Shown: positions 4,109 to 53,598 of the stretch, piece after piece
Position numbering within the stretch: the stretch's first letter is position 1
How the letters are laid out: every line of letters begins with the position of its first letter
Virus record (IMG/VR): IMGVR_UViG_3300021541_000005
Direction: 5' to 3' (one strand)
Source of the DNA: a virus
DNA length: 64,000 nucleotides
Position numbers and translations under genes: made by a program
Notes under the pieces: model-generated
Database searches by the model: none
What the model was told of the DNA's origin: nothing
Seen by the model: only the letters and a program-made list of their open reading frames with translations

Positions 4109-4349
4109 AATGTTAGAATTGTATGGGCGCTGTGGAAAAGATGTTGAAATAATTAGTTTTGATATTAAGACTATGGTTGTTATTGTGAAAGATAAAATGA
4201 ATGATATCACTTACAAAGGAGTAGTAGATAGTTGTTATGTGAATGCTGATCAGCTGTATCGAAAGTTCAATGGTGATGTTGGTGATGTAGAGTATTCATT
4301 AAAAATTTCTTTGAGGGAGTATGTGGTGATAAAAAATGACGGCGATTAA
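4098..4349 (+). CDS. Hypothetical protein (start may be 4110)
   Basis: RBS ggtgat before ATG 4110. Confidence 0.55.
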   Translation: MVIKMLELYGRCGKDVEIISFDIKTMVVIVKDKMNDITYKGVVDSCYVNADQLYRKFNGDVGDVEYSLKISLREYVVIKNDGD

Positions 4350-4668
4350 ATTTAAAAAAGAATTTTTTAAACCTATTAAAAATGGAGTTAAAACTCAAAC
4401 TTTAAGAAGGCGTAGATTGGATGTAGTTCCTGGTGACTTTGCAGTATGTGTTTTTGAGGATTGTCCTGAAAAAATATTCGTCACTATTACTGATGTGGGT
4501 TACAAAATGTGGAAAACACTAAATGTTGAAGATGCAAAGCTTGAAGGTTTTGGATCTTTACATGATTTGAAAATGTGTTTATTACAAATCTATCCTAATA
4601 TTCAGCCTTGGGATAGGTTTTATTTTTACCGTTTTGAAGTTGATGGTTTTACTGAAACAATGGAGTAA
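4336..4668 (+). CDS. ASCH-domain protein
   Basis: IKFKKEFFKPIKNGVKTQTLR and EDAKLEGF are typical ASCH motifs. Confidence 0.85.
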   Translation: MTAIKFKKEFFKPIKNGVKTQTLRRRRLDVVPGDFAVCVFEDCPEKIFVTITDVGYKMWKTLNVEDAKLEGFGSLHDLKMCLLQIYPNIQPWDRFYFYRFEVDGFTETME

Positions 4669-8078: not shown

Positions 8079-9548
8079 ATGGAACCCTTAACTATTGATG
8101 AATTCGCACAATTAGTAAGCAGAGGAGCTTGGAAACCATTCATACACTTATTACTAGTGGTTAAGCTATTACATTATGTAATAGAAGGTCGCATATCACG
8201 TTTAATGGTATTCATGCCTCCAAGACATGGTAAATCTGAGCTAATAAGTTACTATTTTTTAACATGGTTCCTAGGGTGTTTTCCTGATAAACAGGTAATA
8301 CTCACTACTCATAGCGCTAATTTCAGTCGTAAATGGGGTCGTAGAGTACGTAACCTTCTAGAATACATAGGAAAAGATGCATTTGAAGTTCCTATAGTAC
8401 TGGCTGAAGACAGTAAAGCTGCTCATACCTGGAACATTAAAGACCATAAAGGCGGTCTTGTCACAGCAGGTGTTGGTGGATCTATTCTGGGTGAGGGTGC
8501 AAATGGTTTCATCATAGATGATCCAACTAAAGGTTTCAAAAAAGCAAGAAGTAAAACACATCAAAAAGAACTAAACGATTGGTGGTTTACAGAAGCTAAA
8601 ACCCGTTTAAATGCAGATATTGAAGGTGGAAGTAAACCATGGGTAATAGGAATATGGCAAAGACTTAACATAGACGATTTAGCCGGTCAAATATTATACA
8701 AAAAAGAAGGAGACAAACGTGTACCAAATGAACCTCACATAACCTATCAAGAGGCTATGAGAATAATAGAGGAAGAAAACGAGGATGTACCTTATGGAAC
8801 ATGGGTAATCTTAAACTTACCTGCTATAGCTGAAGAAAATGACCCGTTAGGAAGAGCTCCTGGAGAGCCATTATGGCCAGAACAAAAACCATTAGAAGAA
8901 CTCCAACACATTAAAACTGAAATGGGTAGTTTCAGATTCAACGCAGTATATCAAGGAAACCCACGTGAACCTGAAGGTAATGTATTTTTCCGTAAATGGT
9001 TTCGTAACAGTAAAATGTCACCTAAAGAAATGGATAAGCTCATTGTTAAATTACCTACATTACGATACTGGGATCTTGGAGCTTCAGGTGAGGATGGAGA
9101 TCCAACAGCAGCCCTGTACACTGCATGGGATGGTGAATATATGTACATGAGAAAACTCTTACATAAAGGATTAACCCCATTACAGGTTGAAAAATACTTC
9201 CTAGACACTACTCTACGTGATGGTAAAAGTACACGTGTTAAAATAGAGCAAGAACCTGGTGCATCACCTAAAGTTTTAATCAATAACTTAGCACGTAGAA
9301 AAGAATTCAAAGGTTATAGTATAAGGCCGGATAGAGTAAGGGATTATGGTGATAAATTAACACGTAGTTTTGACTTGCAGGCATTAGCAGAGGCTGATAA
9401 AGTACGTATTTCAGAAGATATTTTTGACATGGTGGTTGATGAATTAGTTGAATTCACTGGTGAGGAAGGAGGCCAGGACAATATCACAGATGTAGCAACT
9501 GGTTCTGCCCGCCATTGGAAGCGTAGACGAGCTAAAATACACGCATAA
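8079..9548 (+). CDS. terL: Terminase large subunit
   Basis: Walker A MPPRHGKSE, Walker B FIIDDP, C-terminal RNase H-like YWDLG...D and QDNITD. Confidence 0.95.
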   Translation: MEPLTIDEFAQLVSRGAWKPFIHLLLVVKLLHYVIEGRISRLMVFMPPRHGKSELISYYFLTWFLGCFPDKQVILTTHSANFSRKWGRRVRNLLEYIGKDAFEVPIVLAEDSKAAHTWNIKDHKGGLVTAGVGGSILGEGANGFIIDDPTKGFKKARSKTHQKELNDWWFTEAKTRLNADIEGGSKPWVIGIWQRLNIDDLAGQILYKKEGDKRVPNEPHITYQEAMRIIEEENEDVPYGTWVILNLPAIAEENDPLGRAPGEPLWPEQKPLEELQHIKTEMGSFRFNAVYQGNPREPEGNVFFRKWFRNSKMSPKEMDKLIVKLPTLRYWDLGASGEDGDPTAALYTAWDGEYMYMRKLLHKGLTPLQVEKYFLDTTLRDGKSTRVKIEQEPGASPKVLINNLARRKEFKGYSIRPDRVRDYGDKLTRSFDLQALAEADKVRISEDIFDMVVDELVEFTGEEGGQDNITDVATGSARHWKRRRAKIHA

Positions 9549-9575: not shown

Positions 9576-11183
9576 ATGGTTAAATCAGAATCATGGATAG
9601 TAACAGTAGACGAAACTACTGGTGACGTTAAAGATGTTATAAGCGAAATTGAAATGGGCAAATATGCTATAAAAGCAGATGTTGACCCTACTACGGGGAG
9701 TAAACAAACACCTAGTGATCATTATGCTCATGGAATAACAGTTATTGACCCGAAATATAATCCTTATAATTTAATTGAATTATTAGATTTGTATAGTTAT
9801 CATGCTGATTGTGTTGATGCTGTTGCAACAGACGCCAGTGGTGTAGATTATACATTGAAACCTATTGAAGGAAAAGATGAAGTTGAAAGTGAGAAAATAA
9901 GATTCACAGAAATATTAGATAATAGTAAACCTTCAATTAATATTCACATTCACCGTATGATTTATGACCGTAGAAGCATAGGCTATGGTGCAATGGAAGT
10001 AATAAGAGAATCCACTAGTAAATCACCTATAACACGTTTAAAACACATACCATCACACACATTACGCCGTCATACAGACATGAAAAGAGTATTATACACA
10101 GATGACACAGGAAAAAAAGTCTGGTATGTGCTATATGGTAAAAATTACGATGATGATGGAAATCCAGTTGATGTTCATATGAAGACAGGTGAATTCCATC
10201 CATATAATAGTTTAAGCATGGAAGAAAAAGCTAATGAATTATTATGGACTATGGAGTATGCTCCAGGAACAAATTATTATGGTAGACCACCAATTATAGC
10301 TACATTACCATCCATACAATCTGATTTAGCTGCGGTACGTTATAATACTACTTTTTTCCAGAATTATGGTATGCCAGCATTCGCAGTCACAGTAACTGGA
10401 GATTTCCAAGATTACGAGGAAGAGAAATATATAAAAGACGATGATGGACGTGAAATTCTCAATCCCGATTATGATGAAAAACAAACTTTAAGATACCAAA
10501 TATCACAGCAAGTAAAAGAAGTAATACGCAATCCACATTCAGCTATTTGTATTACAGTACCATCTGAAGGAGTAGACGGAGATGTAGAAATTAAAATCAC
10601 TCAATTAAGTGTTGACGTTAAAGAAGGCTCTTTCAGAATGATGAAAAAAGACATACGTGATGAAGTAATACACGCTCACCAGGTTGACCCTTCACGTTTA
10701 GGTATTTTTGACAGTGGCAATTTAAATGGTACTAATTCTGAAGTCACTAAAGCATCCTATAAGTATGGTACTATTGCACCAATTAAAACTGAAGTTGAAT
10801 CTATGATAAATCAGATAGCAGCTGAATTAAAAGTGACTAGTTGGAAATTTGTTATTAATGATGTGGATCCAATTGACCATAGCCCACGTAAAGATTTAGC
10901 TGATTTTTTATTTGCACGTGGTGCAATGACTATTATGGATCTGATTAATAATTTTGGTGATGAATTCGGTTTGGCTGTTGATGACCCAAATGACCCTTAT
11001 TTGAACAGTAGATTCATTAATAATATCCCGTTGGAGCAAGTTTTCAATCAATCAGAACAGAATAGTTACTTGGAAGAAAAGAGTATTTTGAAGGCTTTGG
11101 ATGGTAATCTCTGGCAAGACTCTGAAGAGGATGATGATTTTTTAGGAGTTAACAATGACACAGGAATTGGAGAAACAGATTAA
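9576..11183 (+). CDS. Portal protein
   Basis: Follows TerL; FFQNYGMPAFAVTVTG and AHQVDPSRLG portal-type motifs. Confidence 0.9.
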   Translation: MVKSESWIVTVDETTGDVKDVISEIEMGKYAIKADVDPTTGSKQTPSDHYAHGITVIDPKYNPYNLIELLDLYSYHADCVDAVATDASGVDYTLKPIEGKDEVESEKIRFTEILDNSKPSINIHIHRMIYDRRSIGYGAMEVIRESTSKSPITRLKHIPSHTLRRHTDMKRVLYTDDTGKKVWYVLYGKNYDDDGNPVDVHMKTGEFHPYNSLSMEEKANELLWTMEYAPGTNYYGRPPIIATLPSIQSDLAAVRYNTTFFQNYGMPAFAVTVTGDFQDYEEEKYIKDDDGREILNPDYDEKQTLRYQISQQVKEVIRNPHSAICITVPSEGVDGDVEIKITQLSVDVKEGSFRMMKKDIRDEVIHAHQVDPSRLGIFDSGNLNGTNSEVTKASYKYGTIAPIKTEVESMINQIAAELKVTSWKFVINDVDPIDHSPRKDLADFLFARGAMTIMDLINNFGDEFGLAVDDPNDPYLNSRFINNIPLEQVFNQSEQNSYLEEKSILKALDGNLWQDSEEDDDFLGVNNDTGIGETD

Positions 11184-14100
11184 ACATATTAATAATAGTT
11201 TATTTGCTGCTAAAATGGAAAATATCATACAATACATGTATGAAGAGGAATTAAAAACAAGTGTAGCTGGAATATTCCATAGTATCCGTACAGAAATACT
11301 CAAGAATCTTGAAGAGTATTACGGTGATGTGCTGTTTAATGCACACATGGATTTAATATTAGCACCCATACATGAGCATCACAAACAATACTATGACACC
11401 ATAATGAAATACAAGCTCAAAGAGCATAGAAAAGGACGTGTTCAAGGAAAAAGATTAATTGCACGTGCTAAACAGTACGCCAAACAATACAGTAAAGCTT
11501 ATTATGGTGGTGCTGTTAAAGAGGACACGATTAATGTTCCTATGAATAGCATAATCAAGAAAGATGAATTATTTGCTACTTCAGACTACAGTGCTGAACA
11601 AATGCGTGACAAGACATTTGTTGCAAGTGAAAACACCTTAGCACGTGTAGATAAAGATATTAACGGCATAATCACAGATGGCTACCGTGATGGATGGGGT
11701 ATAAACGATGTAGCTAACAAGATAGAAACCCGTTTCAACCAGCTAGAAACATGGGAAGCACGACGCATAGCAAGAACCGAAATACACGGGTCACATATGC
11801 AAGGAGTAATGAACTCATATGAAGACATGGGCGTAGAATACTTACAATGGGGAGCAGCACATGACAACCGTACACGTGACACACATGCAGCATTAGACGG
11901 TGAAATCATACCCTGGAACGGTGTTTTCAGTAATGGTTTAAGGTATCCTGGAGATACAAATGGTCCGATTAGTGAGTGGATTAATTGTCGTTGTGGTGTT
12001 TTACCGTGGTTTTGTCCTCCTGGTATGATGGTGCCTGTGGGTATGTCTAATTTTAGGGAGTCTGATTTATTACCTTTAGGAACATTAGGAACCGGTGGAG
12101 ACTTATTAACACAATTCCAAGATGAAGTCTCAGCAATACCAAAACAATCATCATCTTTTGACTTAGACATTATTAATCCTAAATTAATTGATTCTAAATT
12201 CTCAATACCTAATGAAGATTTATCAGAATTTGGAATAACTGAAAAAGGAATGGAAACAATTCAAAGATATACTAAACGTAGAATTGGCTCTGATATAGAA
12301 TATGGTGTAGTATTCAATGAGAAAAACGGTAAATTCTTATCTAAAGAATTTAAAGGAGCTAGTAATGATATAGTATTAACCAAACCAAATGGAAAATATA
12401 GTACAATACACTACCATACTGATGAGGGTTTTAGACCTACATCTTCAGGAGATTTCTTTGAATTCTTAAACTCAAAAAATGAACGTGTAGGAATAAATAT
12501 CTCAAGAAAAGAATCATGGTTCATAAAAAATGAAGGCAAATTAACTTCTAAAGAAATTAATAAAATAACTGTAGATATTGATAGATTAGAACAAAAACAA
12601 TTAAAAAAGTTAACCGATGAATATCGTAAGTCATCACTTAAAATTAATAAGATTAAAGACCCTGTTAAAAGACAATCCGCTCAAAAAGAATTTGAAAAAT
12701 ATGTTGCAAATGAATTCTTAGACAAACATAATAAAGAATTAGGTGATGCAATACTTGAATATACATCAAATATCAAAGGATTAAAAGTAAAAAGAGTAAT
12801 GCATACAGAAATAAATCCAAAATCTATTAAAACAATAAGTAAAAAAGAATTAAAAGTAGATAAAAGAAGTTTTGAAGAGTTAACTGGTGTTAAAAGACAT
12901 TCAACACCAATTAATAATAAAGACTATAATAAATATGCTTTGACATCGGTTGAAGAAAAAACATTAGCAAAATTAGAAGCTGAAAAAGATTCATTAGGTA
13001 TGATAGAAAAACGTAGTTATAAGGAATTGGCAGATAGAAAAGAATTCAACTCATTATGGAATAAAATATTACGTGAAGGAGGAAATCCTAATGATGTAAT
13101 GGAGCTATCTGGGGGAGAGGGTGTAAGATATGAAAAATTAATGAAAAAATTCAAAGATTGGACTCCAAAAGGCGACATTGAAATAAAACCAATACAAATT
13201 AACAAAAAAACTATTTTTAAAGATAAAGATGCATTCAAATTAACATCTGAAGAAAAACAAGCATACAAAAAACTTAAAAAGAACAAAGGTAGCTTGTCAA
13301 CGGATGAAAAAGAATACTACTCTCAATTATCAACTAAATTACAACTCCATCAAAAACATCAAGAATTGATTGGAAACGGTTTGAGTGAAACTAAATCTAA
13401 AACATATGTTGAATTGTATTCTCGATATCGAAAACAATGGAATTTACCTGAATTATCCCTTGATTTAAAATTCACTACACAACAAAAATCATTTATTTCA
13501 TATGATTATTATAAGAATGCTACAGAATTTAAACTTACTAAAAAAGAAGCAGATAAATTATATGAATTAGAGAAAAAACAATTATACGGACGAAAATTAA
13601 CTTCAAATGAATTAAAAACAATGGATGAATTACATAATCAACAAAGATTCATTTACTTGAATAATATTAATCAAACAGAAAAAGGTTTAGATTATGATGC
13701 TACTATTGAGTTTAAAAAATTATATAAATCATTAAAAACAAAACTTAAATTAGATAAAAGTGTTTTAGAGCAACCTTTAACAGGGTATGAATCTAAAATT
13801 TCTTTAGATAAAAATCCTAAGAATTTAAAAACATTTAAAGGCACTAATGAGGAAGGTTTACTCCCGAATGGTGAATCCTTAGAAAAGTATTTCACTAAAG
13901 ATGCACGTGAAATGACCATACGTGAACAAAAAGTAGCGGATAGATGGTTGGGTTCGGATTATAAAGCATTCACTAACTTTGAAGTGGATTGTGGGCGTGA
14001 TGTTAAGAAATTCGAGAAATGGATTTATGACATGGCCAAAGCATACAAAGAAGACAATTCATTAAAATATTATCAGTATTATTATGATGAAATAACCAGG

Positions 14101-14580
14101 AGAACAGGTAGAATATCAAAATCTGAAGCTAAAAAATTAGCAGAATCTATTGCTCATGATGTGCCTGTTTTAGATGATATATTAAATAATCAATTGAAAG
14201 AAGGTATGACATTATGGCGTGTACAAGAGAATCATAATTTAAGTTCCACCACGATTGGTGAGGTTATGGATTTCCCTAATTTCAGATCTACAGCTATTTC
14301 CAAAGAAGGGGCATTATGGTTCAGTAAAACTAACGCTAAAGAGATGAATTATTTAATTGAAATTGAGGCTCCAGCAGGTACTAAAGGAGCATATTTAGCT
14401 CCAATAAAACAAGGAGAAATAATAAATCCAACATCTCCTTTCGTAGGAGAGAAATATGCGAATGAAATGGAATTTTTATTAAAAAAATCTAAAGTAGAGT
14501 TGGTTAAATTCGAGGATAAAACTGTTAAAGGTGCTAATGGTGAAAAATTAAAACATATACTGTTAAGAATAGTGGGATGA
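11155..14580 (+). CDS. MuF/SPP1 gp7-like minor head protein fused to JAMM-like, helical-repeat and ADP-ribosyltransferase domains
   Basis: ARRIARTE, W-x4-D-x-RTR-x2-H and INCRC MuF motifs; HYH-x8-S-x2-D; TLWR / FRST / NEME R-S-ExE triad. Confidence 0.9.
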   Translation: MTQELEKQIKHINNSLFAAKMENIIQYMYEEELKTSVAGIFHSIRTEILKNLEEYYGDVLFNAHMDLILAPIHEHHKQYYDTIMKYKLKEHRKGRVQGKRLIARAKQYAKQYSKAYYGGAVKEDTINVPMNSIIKKDELFATSDYSAEQMRDKTFVASENTLARVDKDINGIITDGYRDGWGINDVANKIETRFNQLETWEARRIARTEIHGSHMQGVMNSYEDMGVEYLQWGAAHDNRTRDTHAALDGEIIPWNGVFSNGLRYPGDTNGPISEWINCRCGVLPWFCPPGMMVPVGMSNFRESDLLPLGTLGTGGDLLTQFQDEVSAIPKQSSSFDLDIINPKLIDSKFSIPNEDLSEFGITEKGMETIQRYTKRRIGSDIEYGVVFNEKNGKFLSKEFKGASNDIVLTKPNGKYSTIHYHTDEGFRPTSSGDFFEFLNSKNERVGINISRKESWFIKNEGKLTSKEINKITVDIDRLEQKQLKKLTDEYRKSSLKINKIKDPVKRQSAQKEFEKYVANEFLDKHNKELGDAILEYTSNIKGLKVKRVMHTEINPKSIKTISKKELKVDKRSFEELTGVKRHSTPINNKDYNKYALTSVEEKTLAKLEAEKDSLGMIEKRSYKELADRKEFNSLWNKILREGGNPNDVMELSGGEGVRYEKLMKKFKDWTPKGDIEIKPIQINKKTIFKDKDAFKLTSEEKQAYKKLKKNKGSLSTDEKEYYSQLSTKLQLHQKHQELIGNGLSETKSKTYVELYSRYRKQWNLPELSLDLKFTTQQKSFISYDYYKNATEFKLTKKEADKLYELEKKQLYGRKLTSNELKTMDELHNQQRFIYLNNINQTEKGLDYDATIEFKKLYKSLKTKLKLDKSVLEQPLTGYESKISLDKNPKNLKTFKGTNEEGLLPNGESLEKYFTKDAREMTIREQKVADRWLGSDYKAFTNFEVDCGRDVKKFEKWIYDMAKAYKEDNSLKYYQYYYDEITRRTGRISKSEAKKLAESIAHDVPVLDDILNNQLKEGMTLWRVQENHNLSSTTIGEVMDFPNFRSTAISKEGALWFSKTNAKEMNYLIEIEAPAGTKGAYLAPIKQGEIINPTSPFVGEKYANEMEFLLKKSKVELVKFEDKTVKGANGEKLKHILLRIVG

Positions 14581-14584
14581 TAAA

Positions 14585-14905
14585 ATGAAAAGAGCAGAAA
14601 TTATTAATATAAACTATTTGATTGATCATGCTGAAGATATTATAAATAACACTACTGTTCTATTTCCTCAATGGTTGTGGCGTAGATCCAAATGTTCTGA
14701 TGATGGTGAGCAGTTGCAGGATATTTGGGATCGTATGTATCAAAAACATCAAAGAGAAAGTGGCAATTGGTATATTTTCGGTAGAGGTGATCCTTGGATT
14801 AACCCTGGTGAAACATGGGACGAAGCTCAAGACCGCATAGTCAGAGAATATTGTGAAGCCACTGGCCACTGGGATTTATTCATATGGAAAGAGGTGAAAG
14901 AATGA
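14585..14905 (+). CDS. Orphan protein, candidate immunity protein 1
   Basis: Immediately downstream of the toxin-like domain, no structural motif. Confidence 0.5.
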   Translation: MKRAEIININYLIDHAEDIINNTTVLFPQWLWRRSKCSDDGEQLQDIWDRMYQKHQRESGNWYIFGRGDPWINPGETWDEAQDRIVREYCEATGHWDLFIWKEVKE

Positions 14906-15420
14906 AAGTACTTCAATTTGATTCACATTTCATCAATGATCATATGGATGAATTAGTTCATTTGGAAGACTATGTACCAGAAATATTATTTAGTTATTAT
15001 GATAAGCAAAATGAACGTGATAGATTCTTAAAATCTAAAAATTTATTAGAAACTATACATAAGATAGATCAATTATTGGATGAAAAATGTAAACTTTCAA
15101 AAAATCCAATTATGATAAGGAATAGTATTATCATTGAATGGTTAGATTGTCATCCTGAATTTGAAGGAATAATAGCTGGGGAATTCTGGGAAAAGTATCA
15201 AATGATGAAAAATAATAATGATTTTATTGAGTTTATTGATCTTTTATCTCAATTCAAATTTGCTTCTGAAGAACAAATTATAGCAAAATATGAATATCGT
15301 AATGATGTTATTCATAAAGATGATTCTAATAGAATGTTTCCTGATTTTAAAAAAATTGATGCTATTTTTAATAAATATGGGGCTTCTTTATTAGCATGTT
15401 ATTTATCAGAGTTTGTTTAA
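14902..15420 (+). CDS. Orphan protein, candidate immunity protein 2
   Basis: RBS gaggtga before ATG 14902, ATGA overlap; very AT-rich. Confidence 0.5.
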   Translation: MKVLQFDSHFINDHMDELVHLEDYVPEILFSYYDKQNERDRFLKSKNLLETIHKIDQLLDEKCKLSKNPIMIRNSIIIEWLDCHPEFEGIIAGEFWEKYQMMKNNNDFIEFIDLLSQFKFASEEQIIAKYEYRNDVIHKDDSNRMFPDFKKIDAIFNKYGASLLACYLSEFV

Positions 15421-15428
15421 TTTTTTTT

Positions 15429-15500
15429 AGTCCTATGGTGTAATGGCAATCATGGTGGGTTTTGGTCCCGCTGACTCAGGTTCGACTCCTGATAGGACTA
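15429..15500 (+). tRNA. tRNA-Gln (anticodon UUG), no encoded CCA
   Basis: AGTCCTA/TAGGACT acceptor, GTGGG-TTTTGGT-CCCGC anticodon arm, TCAGG-TTCGACT-CCTGA T arm. Confidence 0.95.
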
Positions 15501-15514
15501 TACAACTTTTTTTG

Positions 15515-15598
15515 GGTAGAATAGTCAAGTGGTCAAAGACGATGTGCTTAGGACTCATTCCTTTAGTAGGTCCGCAGGTTCAAATCCTGCTTCTACCA
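15515..15598 (+). tRNA. tRNA-Leu (anticodon UAG), long variable arm, no encoded CCA
   Basis: GGTAGAA/TTCTACC acceptor, loop CTTAGGA, variable arm CCT-TTAGT-AGG, GCAGG-TTCAAAT-CCTGC. Confidence 0.92.
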
Positions 15599-16104: not shown

Positions 16105-17154
16105 ATGGAGGTATTAACTATTCAAATAAAAAACATGGCTGTGAAAAGTGATGATCAGTTCTTATTCACTGCTCCCGTAATGATACCAGACAAACCAGAT
16201 TGTGATTATGAAAGGGGAGAGGGAACATTCACAGCAGAAGAAATACGATTCTTTAAAGAATCATTTCAGGATTATCAAATCATTGATAAGAATCATCAAG
16301 TATTCAAGGAGTTAGGGAGTGCTAAAAGCATTAAAGACCAAATGGTTGGAGACCCTGTAAATAGTTTCATCCTCGATGAAGAAACTACTTACAAACTCGT
16401 TAATGGTGGTACAGAAACTTATCCTGCGGGTACTTGGATGTTAACTTCAGATGTAACAGATCCAACTACACAACAAGAAATTGAAGATGGTATATTAACT
16501 GGTTATAGTCTATCAGTGCATCGTGAAGATATTGGACGATTAATCAAGAAATACATGGCTACTAAAGCTAGTGGTGGTCAGTTAATTCATGATATACCAA
16601 ATCCTAATGCAATCACTGTGAGCATTGTAAAAAAACCTTGTCAAAGTGGATCTAAACAATGTAAATTAAATGGAAGTGATGTTATGGGTGATGACAAAAA
16701 GACACTTGATAAAATCAGAGAAGCTCTTGGTATGGATAACCCAGGATATGCTACTAAATCTGATTTGGATGCATTAGCTAAAGAAATTAAAGAGGAAAAT
16801 GCTGCGGCTATGAAGTCAGCAGCTGAAGAAATGGGCACTACTATAAGTGATGCTATTAAAGAGGCTTTTAGTGAAGTTGGTGCTATTAAATCTAAAAAAG
16901 AACCTGATAATGACGATGATGATAAGGGTGGTTCTGGTGACAATAAACCAGCAGATACTGATGGTAATGACTCAAAACCAAACCCTGATGATGACGACGA
17001 TGAGGAACTTAAGAAAAAATCTAAAAAACCTAAAAAAGATGGTTCTAAACAAGGAAAAGTACATAATGGAGCAACTAAATCCAATAATACTGAAGATTTA
17101 GACACTTATGCGTTCCTTGGAAGAAACCCAGATGGTACAAGTAAAAATATTTAA
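16105..17154 (+). CDS. Prohead protease (XkdF/S78-like) with C-terminal scaffold region; true start uncertain
   Basis: APVMIPDKPD, GTWML and DGILTGYSL motifs; acidic low-complexity tail; precedes capsid gene. Confidence 0.8.
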   Translation: MEVLTIQIKNMAVKSDDQFLFTAPVMIPDKPDCDYERGEGTFTAEEIRFFKESFQDYQIIDKNHQVFKELGSAKSIKDQMVGDPVNSFILDEETTYKLVNGGTETYPAGTWMLTSDVTDPTTQQEIEDGILTGYSLSVHREDIGRLIKKYMATKASGGQLIHDIPNPNAITVSIVKKPCQSGSKQCKLNGSDVMGDDKKTLDKIREALGMDNPGYATKSDLDALAKEIKEENAAAMKSAAEEMGTTISDAIKEAFSEVGAIKSKKEPDNDDDDKGGSGDNKPADTDGNDSKPNPDDDDDEELKKKSKKPKKDGSKQGKVHNGATKSNNTEDLDTYAFLGRNPDGTSKNI

Positions 17155-20103: not shown

Positions 20104-21135
20104 ATGAGTTGTAGAGTATTTGGTTTAGAACCAGAAGCTGCCTATGGTGAGGAAGTAGACAAAGATGATTTTCACTTACTTTTTGACCATGATGTAGACA
20201 GCATGGATTTTAAACTCAATGACGAACCGGTAACCAAAAGTTTCGGTTCAAGAATGAATCAAAAAGCAAGAGCTGGAGTAATCAAACCAACAGGTAGTAT
20301 AGAAACTTCAGCAAACCTCCAAATATTAGGAGCTTACTTTTACGGATTCTTAGATAATTATAAGTTCACAGCAGGCCAAAATGGTAAAAACACCCATGAG
20401 TTCTGGGGTGGTGAATCTAAATTATTAAAAAGTTTCAGAGGAAAAGCAGTTAACGACGATTTAATTTTCTACTTAATGGGTTTAATCGTCGATTCAATGA
20501 AACTCGAAGTATCTTCAGAAGACATGACTCTTGGAACTGACTTCATTTATAAAACAGAATTCTCTCAAATTTTAGCCGGTGAAAACGATTACGAAAGAGC
20601 CGAAGAACTAGAAGATGATTTATTCATAATGTTTTACGATGTCATGTTAAAACTCAATGGTAATGACCCTGCCGGCGTGCAGACAAGTTTTACCTTCGAA
20701 GGAAGTAACAATCATGACGTTGACAAAACAATAGGCTTTGGTTACAGACATCCACAGGGACAAGCAAAAGCAGGAAAAAGAGAAAACAGTATCAGCATTG
20801 TAACTACACTTACTCAAGAAACTGTAAGAGCAATATTAGATGCAAGATACGGTGATGTAGACCTTCTTGAACCTGCAAAATGTAAAATATTACAGGTCCC
20901 ATTACAAATTGATGTTGAATTATGTGAATATCCTGGCCTTGGATTAACTATTTTATTCCCTAAATGTACTCTCTTAGCTGAATTCGACAGTAGTGGTATT
21001 GATGATGTGGAAGCAACATTAAATATGGCTACATTAGGTTCTGAAGAGGTTACATTAGCCGATGGAACTACTAAGAAAACAGATATGTATGTTAAATTAG
21101 TCAATAAACAACCTAAGATAGCTCCCAGCATCTGA
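20104..21135 (+). CDS. Major tail tube protein
   Basis: Size, beta-rich character, position before chaperone and tape measure. Confidence 0.75.
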   Translation: MSCRVFGLEPEAAYGEEVDKDDFHLLFDHDVDSMDFKLNDEPVTKSFGSRMNQKARAGVIKPTGSIETSANLQILGAYFYGFLDNYKFTAGQNGKNTHEFWGGESKLLKSFRGKAVNDDLIFYLMGLIVDSMKLEVSSEDMTLGTDFIYKTEFSQILAGENDYERAEELEDDLFIMFYDVMLKLNGNDPAGVQTSFTFEGSNNHDVDKTIGFGYRHPQGQAKAGKRENSISIVTTLTQETVRAILDARYGDVDLLEPAKCKILQVPLQIDVELCEYPGLGLTILFPKCTLLAEFDSSGIDDVEATLNMATLGSEEVTLADGTTKKTDMYVKLVNKQPKIAPSI

Positions 21136-25000: not shown

Positions 25001-26775
25001 TTATTAATGGTGTACTCAACGCTATGGGTATACATTCACCAGGTATTATTCAAAATAGTATTACTGATGAATTCAAGAACTCTGTTCAAAAGATTAAGGA
25101 TGCTATTAAGCCGGCTGGTGAGTATGCAAGGCAAGTTGGTGCAGAGATAGTTGATAAATTTGGTGAACCGAAATTATCATTGGATACTGATGATTTAATG
25201 CCTTATTATGATTTGGATGAAAATCCGTTAGAAAATGTTGATTTAGCCAGTATGGATTTATCTAGTGTGTCTGGTGGTTTGGATTCTGCAATGGGTATGA
25301 CTGATGATACTAATGTTATGATTGGTGAATCTTATGATGCATTAGCAACAATGATGATGACTACTTTGCAGAATATGGTTTTACAGGATCAATTTGCTTA
25401 TGGTCAAATTCAGTCTAATGATTTAGCTACTTTCCAGAATATTAGTACTGGTTTGAACTTGAATTTGTTGTCTATGAGTAATAATCTTCGTACTCAGTTA
25501 AATCTTATGTTATTAACTCATCGTACTGCTATGACTAGTGCTACTAATACTACTCGTCAGCAATTGGCGTTAATGTTGAATGAAACAATGAAAGTCACCA
25601 GTGAGATGAGGTCTGCATGGGCGGTAATGGCAGACAGTATAATAAGTGCTGCTGCAAGGATTAAAAATGAAGCTACTGCTTACTTTGACCAGTTATCTTC
25701 TACGATTGGTACTTTTTACAGGAAATTGCAGAATCCATCACAGTGGGCTGGTGGTGATTCTACTGGATCACCTTCTACTATAAGGCGTGTTGGTCGTGAC
25801 CCTGCGGTTATGACTCGTATCACTCGTGGTGTGGCTAATAGTTTAAGACGTGATAATCAATTGCCTTACACTATTACTGCGGTTAAAGCGATGGATAATG
25901 GATTGGTTAGTCCTGTAACCTTGGAGTATATGGATAAAACTGCATCTGATAATTTAAATCTTATTGATTTGATTCAACGTGGTGCCTGTCCTAATTGTTT
26001 TGCTGGTGGATGGGATGCTGTTGCAGATCCAAACATTGCTTATATTAAGCAGACTGCTCGTGAGTGGCAAATGAAAGGGCCTGCTGTGCATACTGGTGTT
26101 GGTGATATTGACACTGGTTTATCTTTCCGTGTTAAAGACTTTGAAGGTGGAACACCGCATATTAGTTGGGAATCCTTTGTTAGGATTGCTACGGCGATTG
26201 CTAGTGCAATACCTTATGAATTGTACTACAATAGTGATGCTCATGGCTCTTGGCAAAATGCTATTGCTGCGGGTTCATGGAATTGTTATGATGGTGCTTC
26301 TGCAATGGTGGCTCTTGCAAATACCTGTGGTTATGGTGGTTATGTTGATTGTGGTTTGAATTGGGGTGGTTTTGGTCATTGTGCTGCTATTATTAATGGT
26401 TATACTTTCGATACAACTGCTTTAAGGCAACGTGGTGGTTGGACTGCTGGTCCATGCAGTTATAGTCATCCGGCACCATCTGCTGGAGGTCCAATTAATG
26501 TTCATATTCCTGGAGGCAGATCTGCTCCACGTACACATTCCAATCCATTAGAAGGATTATTTGACAATAATAATTCTAGGGGTAATGTTGAAGAGGTTAA
26601 ATTAACATTAGAACATAAAGTGGATGTTACTGTTGATGGTAATGTTGAAAATATTGGTACTGATGCATTAATCAAAGAATTAACTGAGTCAGTCACTGAT
26701 AAAAGATTGATTGACCGTATTGCTGATGCATTAATTAAAAGGGATAAACGTATAGCTCGTATGGGAGGTGCATAA
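22054..26775 (+). CDS. Tape measure protein with C-terminal cysteine-peptidase-like domain
   Basis: 1573 aa, Ala-rich helical repeats, NPITWIVVAL, W-spaced repeats; NCYD...GH...D near C terminus. Confidence 0.92.
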   Translation: MVSENIVKIILKMEDQATQMAQKADQAISKLGNTAQTSNQKASQSAQQLTQKYESTNDSIRRVGQAVEKVGQNGAKSFNNMGEATQKAVINFNRLDEQSQNVIRHMGNLDDESRQTFLGMYSYAQDAISKFDALQNETRTWGTTFDYTRSKMQLMGTNVDSLKGKIQVVGSSITTHLGNKWDTIKSKVTVFGNYITSHLSSALSTVRSKIQSLGDAFTGIGGVISTVFGGIGLKAMTDMTIGASINRDRIKSLSFAMLGYGESFESFSKGIWKQMDSMTNASLVSLDQLSQAASVVKMSTNASKEQMKELLPVLNDIGQRAILMGKSGDEAMGLMQAAGKGLNGEFEMLRENFGITKEKLENAGWNGSAEDIDGYTQALKKCLAESGDVNGMMDTTSGKITRLQKMWNVSARSLGDQFKPALDQALNSLLKFLDADNNGEIDKQAQGWVQCAVGAMTAASAFATLAPSIAPALQVMDMFFSKGRAVLTFLGLLEAEEGALTASTLANTIAEKANAIAKAAKGVTTAELTAEEVALGAAEAGLTAEEIAAAAAHAGSAVAMTAEGAAAVTAAGGTTTLTGALWGMTTALLSNPITWIVVALVALAVAVYEVGKAFGWWKDIPTLLAAVWSGIQRMWNAFINHPDVKAVIGVLVTAWNSLVSAIGWVISKVEEFFGIHINGEFDVVHAIIEGIGVAWQVITMPIRTVISIIQFLIPVFQSVASAVQTAQSKFGAFGGFLATMASPIIFVWELLRKIVCILLGCSPGIVPALQRTWEVFQEVFNAIAGFIGGIISPIVESIRPLIDIFVEIVTYLVEMFMPAWDLLSNILLVIWNAVSQLINIFQAFLSGQITLPQMLNMIWNLILTAYMTILTMIINFVFQWAGQIVSAAINAASGFVNGIITYISGLPGRFFSYLAQTTSNIINAGAQWVNTARQKASEMVNSASTTVQQLPGKIYTEFTKVPDRIREAIPQAIAAALNFGKEIINGVLNAMGIHSPGIIQNSITDEFKNSVQKIKDAIKPAGEYARQVGAEIVDKFGEPKLSLDTDDLMPYYDLDENPLENVDLASMDLSSVSGGLDSAMGMTDDTNVMIGESYDALATMMMTTLQNMVLQDQFAYGQIQSNDLATFQNISTGLNLNLLSMSNNLRTQLNLMLLTHRTAMTSATNTTRQQLALMLNETMKVTSEMRSAWAVMADSIISAAARIKNEATAYFDQLSSTIGTFYRKLQNPSQWAGGDSTGSPSTIRRVGRDPAVMTRITRGVANSLRRDNQLPYTITAVKAMDNGLVSPVTLEYMDKTASDNLNLIDLIQRGACPNCFAGGWDAVADPNIAYIKQTAREWQMKGPAVHTGVGDIDTGLSFRVKDFEGGTPHISWESFVRIATAIASAIPYELYYNSDAHGSWQNAIAAGSWNCYDGASAMVALANTCGYGGYVDCGLNWGGFGHCAAIINGYTFDTTALRQRGGWTAGPCSYSHPAPSAGGPINVHIPGGRSAPRTHSNPLEGLFDNNNSRGNVEEVKLTLEHKVDVTVDGNVENIGTDALIKELTESVTDKRLIDRIADALIKRDKRIARMGGA

Positions 26776-36919: not shown

Positions 36920-37480
36920 ATGCCGTGTGCTATAATAGGAAATATAAAAGGTGTCAAAGGAGACACTGGAGAAAAAGGAGAAAAAGGAGATAAAGGAGAC
37001 AGAGGCGAACAAGGAATACAAGGACCAGCAGGCCAAAATGGAATTGACGGTACTACAGACACACCAACACAAGTACTCAGCAAATTAAAGAATGTTGATG
37101 GATCCAATAGTGGCTTAGATGCAGACTTACTGGATGGTCATGATTCATCTTATTTTGCGAAAGCAGATGACTTACCTAGCTTGATTGCTATAGAAGAACC
37201 ATATATATTTAGTGCATTCAAAATTGCTAAATCTGGAAATACTGTTGTGTTAGTTGTTGAACCATGGGCTGTTAATAGCCCGGTGGTAAATAAATATGTT
37301 AGTACAAATGTGCACGTACCTCCTGGTTATGAACCATCTTTCCCTGTTTATATTGCTAATGTTTTGCCTAATGATGTTCGAATGCAGATTACTCGAAGTG
37401 GGGATATCCAATTTTGGAGATCTGAGGGTGCTGGAACAGAATTTTGTGGTACGGGTTCATGGTTAGTTCCTGGGGAGTAA
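36920..37480 (+). CDS. Collagen-like tail fibre protein
   Basis: Gly-X-Y run GVKGDTGEKGEKGDKGDRGEQGIQGPAGQNGIDG; SGLDADLLDG motif. Confidence 0.8.
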   Translation: MPCAIIGNIKGVKGDTGEKGEKGDKGDRGEQGIQGPAGQNGIDGTTDTPTQVLSKLKNVDGSNSGLDADLLDGHDSSYFAKADDLPSLIAIEEPYIFSAFKIAKSGNTVVLVVEPWAVNSPVVNKYVSTNVHVPPGYEPSFPVYIANVLPNDVRMQITRSGDIQFWRSEGAGTEFCGTGSWLVPGE

Positions 37481-37486
37481 AGAAAA

Positions 37487-37594
37487 ATGAAGAAATCTGA
37501 TCCTCATAAAGGTTGTTGTTATAGGCGAACTTGTAATAAAGACTTGAAAAAATGTTGCTATTTATATAAAAAGGTGAAAAAATGGGAATTTTAG
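37487..37594 (+). CDS. Small basic Cys-rich peptide, 35 aa (not in ORF track)
   Basis: MKKSDPHKGCCYRRTCNKDLKKCCYLYKKVKKWEF behind RBS ggggag. Confidence 0.4.
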   Translation: MKKSDPHKGCCYRRTCNKDLKKCCYLYKKVKKWEF

Positions 37595-38712
37595 ATTGGA
37601 TAAAGAACATTTTAGGGAATAATAAAAAGAATGCTAGATTAATCACGAAAGATTTAATCAAAACGTATGGTGAAAAAGACCAGTTAGAAGTGGGCCTATA
37701 TGAAGGAAACTCACCTTTACCTGGTAAAATGATTACTTTTAATGTGAATGGTATGGATTATTATCGTAAGACTGATGATGATGGTATTGCTAGGTTAAAT
37801 ATTAATTTGCCTCCTGGTGAATATACTCCTTTAATTAGTTTTAAGGATGATGATTATAATCTTGATACTGAATTTACAACCGTGATTGTACGTTCTAAAA
37901 CACGTATGGAAGGCACTGATATTAATATGACTTATCGTGATGGTACAATGTATCAATGTGCTGTGTATGATGATTTTGGCCGTGTTCTTGGAGATGTTGA
38001 TTTAACAATCAATGGGGTTACTTATCATAGAACCGCTGATAATGAGGGTTTGTATAAGTTAAATATTAATTTGAATCCTGGAAATTATACTATTACTGCT
38101 AAATATCTTGGAGATATGTTTCATTTGCCTTCAGAGATTAAAAATACTATCCATATTAATGAAGCCCCTAAAGTGGAGCCTAAGGTAGAGTCTAAAGTAG
38201 AGCAAAATTATACTCTTAATCCATATATTACTCAACAGGGATCAGGTAAGCTTGGTCAAGTATGTGGATATTCCTGCGGTCCGCATAGTTTGATGCAATG
38301 TATCTATAGGCTGACTGGTATTGAATTGTCTGAATCTACATTAATGAGTGTGTGTGGGACTACATCAGGAGGCACAGATCATCAGGGTTTGGCGACAGGT
38401 TTAGCATGGTTTAACCGGCAATACGGGTACAACCTGAAAATGACTTGGAAAAACAAAAGTGAGTTGTCATGGGAAGAAATACAGCAAGCCATAAATAATG
38501 GAGCATTATTCTTCCATTTGTTATATCGCAATCAATGGGGTCATTATGAGGTTGCACAAAACAGTAAAAGTCCTATGTCCATTTTGAACAGCCTTGGAAG
38601 TAGATGTGGCAATGGGTATTGTGGATATATTGAAAGTAGATCAAGAGCTACTCAACAATCCTACATAAATGGTATAAGTCAGAAAAGTGTTTGTATAATT
38701 AGTAGAGGGTGA
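37582..38712 (+). CDS. peiR: Pseudomurein endoisopeptidase (PeiR-like, C39 family) with Ig-like adhesin repeats
   Basis: Q-x5-C (QVCGYSC), WGHY, ILNSLG; two N-terminal VNG-x-Y-x-R-x-TD-x2-G...LNINL-x-PG-x-Y repeats. Confidence 0.75.
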   Translation: MGILDWIKNILGNNKKNARLITKDLIKTYGEKDQLEVGLYEGNSPLPGKMITFNVNGMDYYRKTDDDGIARLNINLPPGEYTPLISFKDDDYNLDTEFTTVIVRSKTRMEGTDINMTYRDGTMYQCAVYDDFGRVLGDVDLTINGVTYHRTADNEGLYKLNINLNPGNYTITAKYLGDMFHLPSEIKNTIHINEAPKVEPKVESKVEQNYTLNPYITQQGSGKLGQVCGYSCGPHSLMQCIYRLTGIELSESTLMSVCGTTSGGTDHQGLATGLAWFNRQYGYNLKMTWKNKSELSWEEIQQAINNGALFFHLLYRNQWGHYEVAQNSKSPMSILNSLGSRCGNGYCGYIESRSRATQQSYINGISQKSVCIISRG

Positions 38713-39359: not shown

Positions 39360-40565
39360 ATGAAAAATATGAGACCTACAAATGAAATCCTAAATGAAAT
39401 ATTCAGAGAACGTAACTCATCAATTAACACACAAAAATCATATGCAAGAAGTGTCAATCAATTCGAGTTATACTTCCAACAACATTTAGGAGAAATATTA
39501 ATCATTGCAGAAACAGAAGAAGATCAAGGAATACCCTGGAGAAAATCGACACTAAGACAATATCTAATAGAATTCAGAAGCTACCTATATGATAAATACA
39601 AATCCAAGACAGCTAAATTATATCTTACATTAATAATATCTATTTTTAGGCATTTTGAATTTGTTATACCAAAATTACCACGTTTTAGTGAGGACATTGA
39701 AGTCATACCAATATTACCTGAAGACATTCCAGACAGGGAGATGCTTCAGAAATGTCTTGAAATAGCACCTAAGATTGTTGAAACATTCGCATTATTCACT
39801 TCCAGTTCAGGAATGAGCAGGAGAGATGCATTGAATTTGAAAGTGAAAGATTATTTGGAAGCTACTAAAGAATATCATCATAGCAATAATGTTCAGGAAG
39901 CTATTAAAGAAATGAATTGGTCTAATGTTGATATTGTTCCTTGTTTTAGGGATTTAACACGTCAAAAAACGGGTTTACCATATTATACATTTTGCAGTCC
40001 AGAAGCTGCTAAAAGTTTGAACAATTATTTACTTAGTAGAAGAGTTTTAATCTATGCTGGTGATGGTGAGGTAATTGGATCAAGAGATGTCACGCCTGAA
40101 GATGATCTCTTTGATGTGTCATATCAATGGATAGGTGATTTGTTTGATGAAGTAAATCAAAAGTTGGGGCTCGGTAAAGCTGGTAGATATAACAGGTTTA
40201 CTATTCATATGATGCGTCGTTATCATGCTACTCAGTTGCATGCTGCGGGAATGAGTGAAGATAAGATAAATCTATTGCAAGGTAGAACTCCGAAAAGTGT
40301 GATTCATGAGTCATATATTCGTGTAAAAGCAGAGGATTTGAAAGAAGAGTATATTCAAGCATTGCCATATATAGTGGTTACTGAGATTGATAAGGTGCGT
40401 ACAAAGTTAGATGTTGTTACTGAAAAGAAAGAAGTGTTGGAAAATGAGAATATTGTTTTGAAAAATGAGTTATCTGATATTAAGTCTAGGCAGGATAATC
40501 TTGAGAAATTAATCCTGGAAAATATTAGTGAGGAGCGTTTGGGTAAACTTAACAAACTAATATAA
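39360..40565 (+). CDS. int: Tyrosine recombinase / integrase with C-terminal coiled coil
   Basis: SSGMSRRD, HMMRR (HxxR), LLQGR, HESY catalytic boxes. Confidence 0.88.
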   Translation: MKNMRPTNEILNEIFRERNSSINTQKSYARSVNQFELYFQQHLGEILIIAETEEDQGIPWRKSTLRQYLIEFRSYLYDKYKSKTAKLYLTLIISIFRHFEFVIPKLPRFSEDIEVIPILPEDIPDREMLQKCLEIAPKIVETFALFTSSSGMSRRDALNLKVKDYLEATKEYHHSNNVQEAIKEMNWSNVDIVPCFRDLTRQKTGLPYYTFCSPEAAKSLNNYLLSRRVLIYAGDGEVIGSRDVTPEDDLFDVSYQWIGDLFDEVNQKLGLGKAGRYNRFTIHMMRRYHATQLHAAGMSEDKINLLQGRTPKSVIHESYIRVKAEDLKEEYIQALPYIVVTEIDKVRTKLDVVTEKKEVLENENIVLKNELSDIKSRQDNLEKLILENISEERLGKLNKLI

Positions 40566-51990: not shown

Positions 51991-53598
51991 ATGGTTAAAT
52001 CAGAATCATGGATAGTAACAGTAGACGAAACTACTGGTGACGTTAAAGATGTTATAAGCGAAATTGAAATGGGCAAATATGCTATAAAAGCAGATGTTGA
52101 CCCTACTACGGGGAGTAAACAAACACCTAGTGATCATTATGCTCATGGAATAACAGTTATTGACCCGAAATATAATCCTTATAATTTAATTGAATTATTA
52201 GATTTGTATAGTTATCATGCTGATTGTGTTGATGCTGTTGCAACAGACGCCAGTGGTGTAGATTATACATTGAAACCTATTGAAGGAAAAGATGAAGTTG
52301 AAAGTGAGAAAATAAGATTCACAGAAATATTAGATAATAGTAAACCTTCAATTAATATTCACATTCACCGTATGATTTATGACCGTAGAAGCATAGGCTA
52401 TGGTGCAATGGAAGTAATAAGAGAATCCACTAGTAAATCACCTATAACACGTTTAAAACACATACCATCACACACATTACGCCGTCATACAGACATGAAA
52501 AGAGTATTATACACAGATGACACAGGAAAAAAAGTCTGGTATGTGCTATATGGTAAAAATTACGATGATGATGGAAATCCAGTTGATGTTCATATGAAGA
52601 CAGGTGAATTCCATCCATATAATAGTTTAAGCATGGAAGAAAAAGCTAATGAATTATTATGGACTATGGAGTATGCTCCAGGAACAAATTATTATGGTAG
52701 ACCACCAATTATAGCTACATTACCATCCATACAATCTGATTTAGCTGCGGTACGTTATAATACTACTTTTTTCCAGAATTATGGTATGCCAGCATTCGCA
52801 GTCACAGTAACTGGAGATTTCCAAGATTACGAGGAAGAGAAATATATAAAAGACGATGATGGACGTGAAATTCTCAATCCCGATTATGATGAAAAACAAA
52901 CTTTAAGATACCAAATATCACAGCAAGTAAAAGAAGTAATACGCAATCCACATTCAGCTATTTGTATTACAGTACCATCTGAAGGAGTAGACGGAGATGT
53001 AGAAATTAAAATCACTCAATTAAGTGTTGACGTTAAAGAAGGCTCTTTCAGAATGATGAAAAAAGACATACGTGATGAAGTAATACACGCTCACCAGGTT
53101 GACCCTTCACGTTTAGGTATTTTTGACAGTGGCAATTTAAATGGTACTAATTCTGAAGTCACTAAAGCATCCTATAAGTATGGTACTATTGCACCAATTA
53201 AAACTGAAGTTGAATCTATGATAAATCAGATAGCAGCTGAATTAAAAGTGACTAGTTGGAAATTTGTTATTAATGATGTGGATCCAATTGACCATAGCCC
53301 ACGTAAAGATTTAGCTGATTTTTTATTTGCACGTGGTGCAATGACTATTATGGATCTGATTAATAATTTTGGTGATGAATTCGGTTTGGCTGTTGATGAC
53401 CCAAATGACCCTTATTTGAACAGTAGATTCATTAATAATATCCCGTTGGAGCAAGTTTTCAATCAATCAGAACAGAATAGTTACTTGGAAGAAAAGAGTA
53501 TTTTGAAGGCTTTGGATGGTAATCTCTGGCAAGACTCTGAAGAGGATGATGATTTTTTAGGAGTTAACAATGACACAGGAATTGGAGAAACAGATTAA
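51991..53598 (+). CDS. Portal protein (second copy)
   Basis: Copy of 9576..11183. Confidence 0.9.
   Translation: MVKSESWIVTVDETTGDVKDVISEIEMGKYAIKADVDPTTGSKQTPSDHYAHGITVIDPKYNPYNLIELLDLYSYHADCVDAVATDASGVDYTLKPIEGKDEVESEKIRFTEILDNSKPSINIHIHRMIYDRRSIGYGAMEVIRESTSKSPITRLKHIPSHTLRRHTDMKRVLYTDDTGKKVWYVLYGKNYDDDGNPVDVHMKTGEFHPYNSLSMEEKANELLWTMEYAPGTNYYGRPPIIATLPSIQSDLAAVRYNTTFFQNYGMPAFAVTVTGDFQDYEEEKYIKDDDGREILNPDYDEKQTLRYQISQQVKEVIRNPHSAICITVPSEGVDGDVEIKITQLSVDVKEGSFRMMKKDIRDEVIHAHQVDPSRLGIFDSGNLNGTNSEVTKASYKYGTIAPIKTEVESMINQIAAELKVTSWKFVINDVDPIDHSPRKDLADFLFARGAMTIMDLINNFGDEFGLAVDDPNDPYLNSRFINNIPLEQVFNQSEQNSYLEEKSILKALDGNLWQDSEEDDDFLGVNNDTGIGETD

Follow-up and report, generated by a model that had tools for sequence, protein, structure and literature searches.

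The DNA analysed here is a window of 64,000 nucleotides, meaning the whole stretch, from one strand of the virus record IMGVR_UViG_3300021541_000005 in IMG/VR. It contains a 42,415-bp genome written 1.5 times (the pattern of open reading frames (ORFs) has a period of 42,415 bp); positions 1-21585 are identical to 42416-64000, with 0 mismatches over 21,585 bases, and each feature in 1-21585 is duplicated. Our subject is the gene at 11155-14580 on the plus strand, an open frame of 1141 amino acids (aa) in which a MuF minor head protein is followed by a JAB-like module, a Lys-rich, presumably helical linker and a predicted ADP-ribosyltransferase (ART) domain. Because the genome wraps around, this gene occurs twice in the window, the second identical copy being at 53570-56995. 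It lies directly 3' of the portal gene (9576-11183, plus strand), within a packaging and head module that has the order terminase, portal, MuF, XkdF, and its first 29 nt lie within the 3' end of the portal gene, an overlap also seen in the virus Drs3. Directly downstream, on the same strand, are an ORF of 106 aa (14585-14905) and one of 178 aa (14884-15420).

Domain organization of the MuF-ART protein

The MuF/gp7 core occupies residues 1-320 (11155-12114, plus strand). Pfam PF04233 matches residues 168-282 (E 2.9e-13, 51 bits against a cut-off of 29.6), NCBIfam TIGR01641 (SPP1 gp7) matches with 49.9 bits against 39.65, and PHROG head-morphogenesis families match the MuF part down to E 4e-32. 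The rest of the protein is rich in Lys, at 14.2% in residues 321-560, 16.7% in residues 561-950 and 12.6% in residues 951-1141, compared with 6.2% in the MuF part and about 7.7% in the long ORFs of the genome. A reading made earlier from the sequence alone (the sequence-only reading) had described a MuF domain followed by a Lys-rich extension, and these matches and the Lys contents confirm it. The linker itself (12835-13911, plus strand; about 17% Lys) contains recurring 'L-T/S-x-x-E' segments and matches no Pfam or PHROG family; an ordered stretch after it leads into the ART domain.

The C-terminal domain, residues ~920-1141 (13912-14577, plus strand), is of the C3/VIP2 type. When residues 851-1141 are scanned alone they match PF03496 (ADPrib_exo_Tox) with E 1.3e-8 and 34.9 bits against a gathering threshold of 23.4. 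A full-length phmmer search of PDB returned nothing for the C-terminus, detection being possible only with the isolated C-terminal piece. The catalytic motifs are TLWR from 14209 (Arg codon at 14218), FRST from 14281 and NEME from 14461, which place the predicted catalytic residues at R1022 (14218), S1045-T1046-A1047 (14287) and Y1101-A-N-E1104-M-E1106 (14464 and 14470). Among 1.84 billion cluster representatives searched exhaustively with HMMER, only 51 relatives reached E<=1e-3, many as part of MuF proteins from the same group, and by this measure the ART clade is narrow and divergent. In an alignment of 29 relatives, in which conservation was scored, R1022 is invariant, S1045 is at least 90% conserved and the third S-T-S position is A or S. 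E1106 is kept in each row long enough to include it, and residue 1104 is either E or Q, giving the classic (Q/E)-x-E alternation.

An AlphaFold2 model of the domain, built from the 29-sequence alignment, has a pLDDT of 91.6 and a pTM of 0.87, and consists of an N-terminal helical subdomain and a split beta-sandwich core, as in the ART fold. Its top Foldseek matches are all C3/VIP2-type ARTs, with Certhrax first (E 4e-8), then VIP2, CDTa, iota Ia, C2-I, Plx2A, C3 and Lmo0066. A profile of the domain alone, searched against the PDB sequences, finds Certhrax (3e-7), Lmo0066 (5e-6), CDTa (2e-5) and iota Ia (3e-5), and the alignments are in register at each motif. The '...lwR...' segment corresponds to '...vYRR...' of Certhrax, which holds the catalytic Arg of strand 1; '...rSTa...' corresponds to the 'STS' of Certhrax and CDTa; and '...kYAkEmEfLL' corresponds to 'gYAGEYEVLL' of CDTa and to 'QYEMLI' of Certhrax. 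The sequence-only reading had named the three motifs, had taken R-S-ExE as an ART signature and had proposed that the C-terminus has an ART fold. Its motif coordinates are exact, and the conservation among relatives, the register with Certhrax and CDTa and the structural matches bear out the other two points.

Compared with the C3 exoenzymes and the A components of binary toxins (VIP2, iota Ia, CDTa, C2-I, Certhrax), the domain has 14-22% identity, S-T-A in place of S-T-S and no signal peptide or B-component adaptor, and it forms the C-terminal end of a putative virion protein. Two insertions are found in this virus and its nearest relatives, one of 13 residues in the region of the ADP-ribosylating turn-turn (ARTT) loop and another near the C-terminus; both are plausible determinants of specificity. 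Judged by sequence and predicted structure, the C-terminus is a true C3/VIP2-type R-S-E ART whose triad is intact and conserved, and we are highly confident that the protein represents a catalytically competent ART fused to MuF. From what is known of the family, an arginine acceptor is suggested by the E-x-E form together with the iota/CDT-like 'Y-A-x-E-x-E' ARTT loop. The domain could instead act mainly as a nicotinamide adenine dinucleotide (NAD+) glycohydrolase, one that would lower or alter the NAD+ pool and might in this way weaken an NAD-dependent defence. ART-fold toxins that act as NADases do exist (Tne5, PMC13285283), but the full R / S-T / E-x-E triad together with this ARTT loop is that of the iota/CDT-type protein-arginine transferases, and we consider a primary NADase role very improbable.

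Between the MuF core and the linker is a further, optional module that the sequence-only reading had not recognised. This module A (residues ~359-549; 12229-12801, plus strand) probably adopts the JAB/MPN (JAMM) metalloprotease fold, with a long helical hairpin inserted into it. The pattern E383...H419-x-H421-x8-S430-x2-D433 (codons at 12301, 12409, 12415, 12442 and 12451) is present in all 19 of the 19 module-bearing homologs, with x8 where the JAMM signature has x7. The only Pfam match is to DUF4329, at 18.7-19.5 bits and under the cut-off of 28.6. Foldseek gave nothing significant for the module, its profile found no JAB chain among the PDB sequences, and a look-alike search of residues 300-480 gave scores all <0.9 with a faint Prok-JAB lead. 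We regard module A, with moderate support, as a probable JAB/MPN metalloprotease; the closest systems are the JAMM/MPN metalloproteases such as Pyrococcus furiosus JAMM1, Cap3 of the cyclic-oligonucleotide-based antiphage signalling system (CBASS), AMSH/Sst2 and RadC. Five homologs (P0004, P0005, P0022, P0031 and P0045) have a different module at this position, with conserved 'ELGH...' and '...EFAE...' segments, which may be a zincin-like or degenerate peptidase.

C-terminal swapping and the downstream ORFs

Searches with the protein gave 222 matches at E<=1e-3, and the best 120 of the 222 were analysed. The MuF core (residues ~30-300) aligns in 118 of 119 homologs, after which coverage falls stepwise; the shortest homolog has 629 aa and the longest 1426 aa. 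P0035 is 90% identical over residues 1-320 and unrelated beyond, and P0043, P0046 and P0048-50 are 72-79% identical over residues 5-342 and likewise unrelated beyond. A family-specific hidden Markov model finds this ART in 63 of the 120 MuF homologs, nearly always at the extreme C-terminus, and stored Pfam annotation flags PF03496 in seven. Because full-length Pfam annotation detects so much smaller a part of this set than the family-specific model, MuF-fused ART cargo is probably under-counted in surveys of archaeal viromes. In a wider sample of 92 loci, obtained by an alignment-based search (a single-protein search gave one IMG/VR locus), most MuF relatives are plain proteins of 280-320 aa and the extended ones are a minority.

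The sequence-only reading had likened the gene to the polymorphic toxins of bacterial phages, and the comparison of C-termini agrees with this, as close homologs have a common MuF part and swapped C-termini. A conserved MuF N-terminus with a variable C-terminus is the polymorphic-toxin pattern. From these alignments, Methanobrevibacter proviruses commonly carry a polymorphic MuF family of which this gene is one allele. The non-ART C-termini of P0048 (L008:7033-8901) and P0043 (L011:6033-7928) have sub-threshold matches to DUF6782, a putative metallopeptidase family (E about 0.007), and to Glyco_transf_61 (GT61; E 0.03-0.09), and they may be other enzymatic cargo. The C-terminus of P0035 has no Pfam match, and no ART is detected in it even when it is scanned alone.

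Neither of the two ORFs downstream of the gene matches a Pfam or PHROG family, and no match was found to an immunity protein, an ADP-ribosylhydrolase (ARH), a macro domain or another hydrolase. The 106-aa and 178-aa families have an N-terminal helix motif in common. We tabulated their co-occurrence with ART genes in the 92-locus sample, which is small and whose lineages are not phylogenetically independent; the 106-aa family follows ART genes in four lineages (this virus, the nearest genome compared, G001, and loci L010 and L021) and is missing after ART genes in L012, L013-15, L017, L022/26 and L085. The 178-aa family follows ART genes in five lineages at jackhmmer significance, to which a 97-aa ORF in L017 can be added at E 1.6e-4, and at loci that lack the 106-aa gene it is the 178-aa gene that directly adjoins the ART gene. 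At L012 and L085 neither family follows the ART gene. After non-ART genes we found no member of the 178-aa family in the loci sampled.

The 106-aa family occurs after a non-ART gene in L007, where a 64%-identical homolog lies downstream of P0035. At this locus a 143-aa ORF (L007:8183-8614) is placed between the non-ART MuF allele and the orphan 106-family gene, and homologs of the 143-aa ORF follow two other non-ART alleles, L028 and L049. From its position the 143-aa ORF is a candidate partner of the non-ART C-terminal domain, and L007 looks like a displaced cassette that has left an orphan 106-family gene behind. A role for the 106-aa ORF as a strictly cassette-matched immunity gene is ruled out by the homolog after P0035 and by the absence of the family at several ART loci. 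The 106-aa protein is a candidate partner or immunity protein of the ART that is not strictly linked to it, and a link between the ART and the 106-aa/178-aa pair is plausible from this co-occurrence.

In L021 the MuF-ART gene is followed by a 207-aa ORF (10415-11035) whose C-terminal half is a clear member of the 106-aa family (E 5e-48) and whose N-terminal half has a weak likeness to the core of the 178-aa family (E about 0.4 among 1620 ORFs). This ORF may be a fusion of 178-like and 106-like proteins. In L021, L024 and L027 the N-terminal part of the downstream ORF gives a match to the 178-aa family that is not significant (E 0.07-0.4).

These observations bear on whether the locus is a classical polymorphic toxin-immunity cassette, in which the ART would inhibit the growth of non-lysogenic Methanobrevibacter competitors and so favour lysogens, with the 106-aa protein, the 178-aa protein or both as cognate immunity. 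Such a cassette would be in keeping with the swapped C-termini of close homologs, with small ORFs directly 3' of the gene, with a 178-aa family seen solely after ART-bearing genes and with the arrangement at L007, where a new 143-aa ORF precedes the orphan 106-aa homolog. It fits poorly with neighbours that match neither an immunity, ARH or macro family nor any other, with a 106-aa family that is absent after several ART genes and present after a non-ART one, and with two ART loci that have neither family. We consider it possible, though on balance rather unlikely, that this is the function of the locus.

Host, delivery and proposed function

The best relative of the MuF part in the phage database is that of the Methanobacterium virus Drs3 (36% identity, E 2e-44), which has the same terminase-portal-MuF-XkdF-capsid order as this virus. 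The MuF protein of Drs3 is a plain one of 272 aa, in contrast to the 1141 aa of the extended protein described here. G001 has 33% of k-mers in common with the virus and contains a 78%-identical copy of 1154 aa. Archaeal ribosomal protein S8e and McrB are present in G001 and bacterial L27 is absent. The McrA C-terminal domain (PF02249) and bacterial and archaeal small-subunit rRNA models had no match in G001, a 99%-complete metagenome-assembled genome in 150 contigs; since McrB and S8e are present, these absences are likely due to fragmentation and assembly gaps. Homologs from public sources bear the name "phage minor head protein [Methanobrevibacter sp.]". The ART domain is found in 6 of 37 species-representative genomes of the genus of G001 and in 0 of the 24 searched from other genera, and integrated copies are present in the archaeal genomes G001 and G033, among others. 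A megablast search of the MuF-ART gene against the phage collection gave no match. The relation to Drs3, the markers of G001, the homolog names and the distribution among genera show that the premise of the sequence-only reading, a virus of an archaeon and specifically of a methanogen, was correct. Several lines point to a temperate, tailed (siphovirus-like) virus of the gut and rumen methanogen Methanobrevibacter.

Fusions of MuF with toxins were defined in the temperate phages of bacteria, where 14% of 191 MuF toxins are ARTs (Jamet 2017; PMC5576092); the same paper describes a characterised MuF-ART, the EFV toxin of an E. faecalis V583 prophage, and nowhere mentions archaea. The likeness to the bacterial polymorphic toxins is extensive: an N-terminal MuF in the packaging module, variable C-terminal toxins among close relatives with ART a frequent cargo, a temperate element and a small ORF directly downstream. 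The differences are that the host here is archaeal, that the extension, of about 820 aa, is far longer and contains the probable JAB module, that the ART clade is narrow and that the downstream ORFs match no known family. Bxa, from a prophage of Bacteroides stercoris, is a MuF-ART with two immunity proteins, Bsi and BAH (PMC11699363). It resembles the present locus in its MuF N-terminus and C-terminal ART followed by two genes. It differs in that BAH is an ADP-ribosylhydrolase, whereas neither neighbour here matches a hydrolase family, and in that its source is a Gram-negative bacterium and it reportedly has an extracellular action too. ARTs of the Alt/VIP2 family fused to MuF have been described as head-packaged, injected effectors (PMC9503650; PMC5512222).

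In archaeal viruses, stand-alone ART genes are listed in the haloarchaeal viruses HVTV-1 and HCTV-5 (PMC8651126), and the paper on MSTV1 (PMC11375127) and that on an archaeal virus genome database (PMC13465236) contain nothing on MuF or ADP-ribosylation. In the literature searched, which did not include the 2023 methanogen-virus compendium of Medvedeva et al., we found no MuF-ART described for a virus of a methanogen or of any other archaeon. The MuF-ART architecture is thus already well described in bacterial prophages, and what is new here is its occurrence in an archaeal virus, together with a probable protease as an additional module and with downstream proteins of no known family.

By analogy with these systems we infer packaging in the virion, ejection, the acceptor residue, a host target and a role for the neighbouring genes. 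The MuF/gp7 core would anchor the protein in the capsid at the portal, with few copies packaged. The Lys-rich helical linker would carry two enzyme cargoes, the JAMM-type metalloprotease and the C3/VIP2-type mono-ADP-ribosyltransferase. At infection the protein would leave the capsid with the DNA, and the ART would then modify one or more host proteins on arginine at the expense of host NAD+. The 106-aa and 178-aa proteins would probably keep the enzyme in check inside cells that produce the virus or carry it as a lysogen. We lean slightly towards this scenario of a packaged, ejected and host-modifying ART, which overlaps with the toxin-immunity explanation on delivery and differs from it on purpose. 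On this scenario the protein would be an archaeal analogue of T4 Alt and of the bacterial MuF toxins. T4 Alt is a capsid-carried R-S-E ART that is delivered with the DNA and modifies host proteins at entry (PMC5512222; PMC9503650), and the protein described here probably works in a like manner. Alt differs in having no MuF fusion and another means of head targeting, and the targets must differ in an archaeon with eukaryote-like RNA polymerase and translation factors.

Several points weigh against this scenario. The full-length Pfam scan found only MuF and no ART match, and the spacing from R to S, at 23 residues, is shorter than in C3 and VIP2. Ejection of MuF-fused cargo is a hypothesis even for bacterial phages (PMC5576092), and Bxa, the best-studied MuF-ART, is described as leaving the cells and acting outside them (PMC11699363). 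It may also be that the 1141-aa protein is cleaved, either by the prohead protease or by its own JAB module, before it is packaged.

In a more far-reaching form of this last point, the cargo would not be ejected at all and would act in the producing cell or after lysis. Either the prohead protease or the JAB module would cut off the C-terminal part, during assembly or ahead of it, and MuF would be no more than a carrier or expression context. Autoproteolysis of large virion proteins is known, for example in DdrB of P1 (PMC5512222), and here a probable protease does lie between MuF and ART; Bxa, too, acts after leaving the cell. Against this, in P0006-P0009 the MuF part leads straight to the linker and ART, without residues ~330-590 and so without the JAB module, and in L018, L020 and L064 the JAB module is the sole extension of MuF, with no ART. 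Because it is found without ART in these loci and is missing from some ART-bearing proteins, the JAB module is not simply a device for releasing the ART, and for the same reason an independent effector is a better fit for it than a release protease. We regard the non-ejected explanation as quite unlikely. An extension of the ejection scenario is that the virion delivers two effectors into the archaeal cell, an arginine ART directed at the eukaryote-like transcription or translation machinery and a JAMM isopeptidase that strips ubiquitin-like (small archaeal modifier protein, SAMP) or defence-related conjugates, much as Cap3 undoes conjugation in CBASS; we put this forward only as a speculation, and a doubtful one.

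If the ejection scenario is true, capsid-delivered enzymatic effectors and polymorphic MuF toxins extend from bacteriophages to the viruses of archaea. The candidate targets in archaea are eukaryote-like and include RNA polymerase, aEF2/aEF1A, chromatin and SAMP conjugation. To our knowledge, almost nothing is known of the means by which tailed viruses of archaea subvert or poison their hosts. Since Methanobrevibacter is the dominant methane producer of the rumen and of the human gut, a naturally occurring protein able to halt or reprogram it would be of practical interest as well.

Other genes of the genome

The long genes of the genome are on the plus strand throughout. Upstream of the head module are the gene for an ERF recombinase of the single-strand annealing type (342-1043), a weak CcdA/BrnA-antitoxin-like ribbon-helix-helix protein (1700-2101) and an ASCH domain protein (4336-4668), and the module itself begins with the large terminase (8079-9548). 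A tRNA-Gln(TTG) and a tRNA-Leu(TAG) (15428-15598) are located within the head module, with the 178-aa ORF on one side and the protease gene on the other. The latter encodes an XkdF-type prohead serine protease/scaffold (16105-17154, plus strand) and is followed by capsid, neck and tube genes (tube at 20104-21135), then by a tape measure of 1573 aa. The C-terminus of the tape measure (25876-26772) has a sub-threshold match to Transglut_core (E 0.016, 15.9 bits against 23). After it come fibre proteins, which adjoin the genes for a collagen-repeat protein (36920-37480) and an Ig-like (Big_3_5) protein (37582-38712), and an integrase-like ORF is found at 39360-40565 (PF16795, 24.8 bits, below the cut-off of 27).

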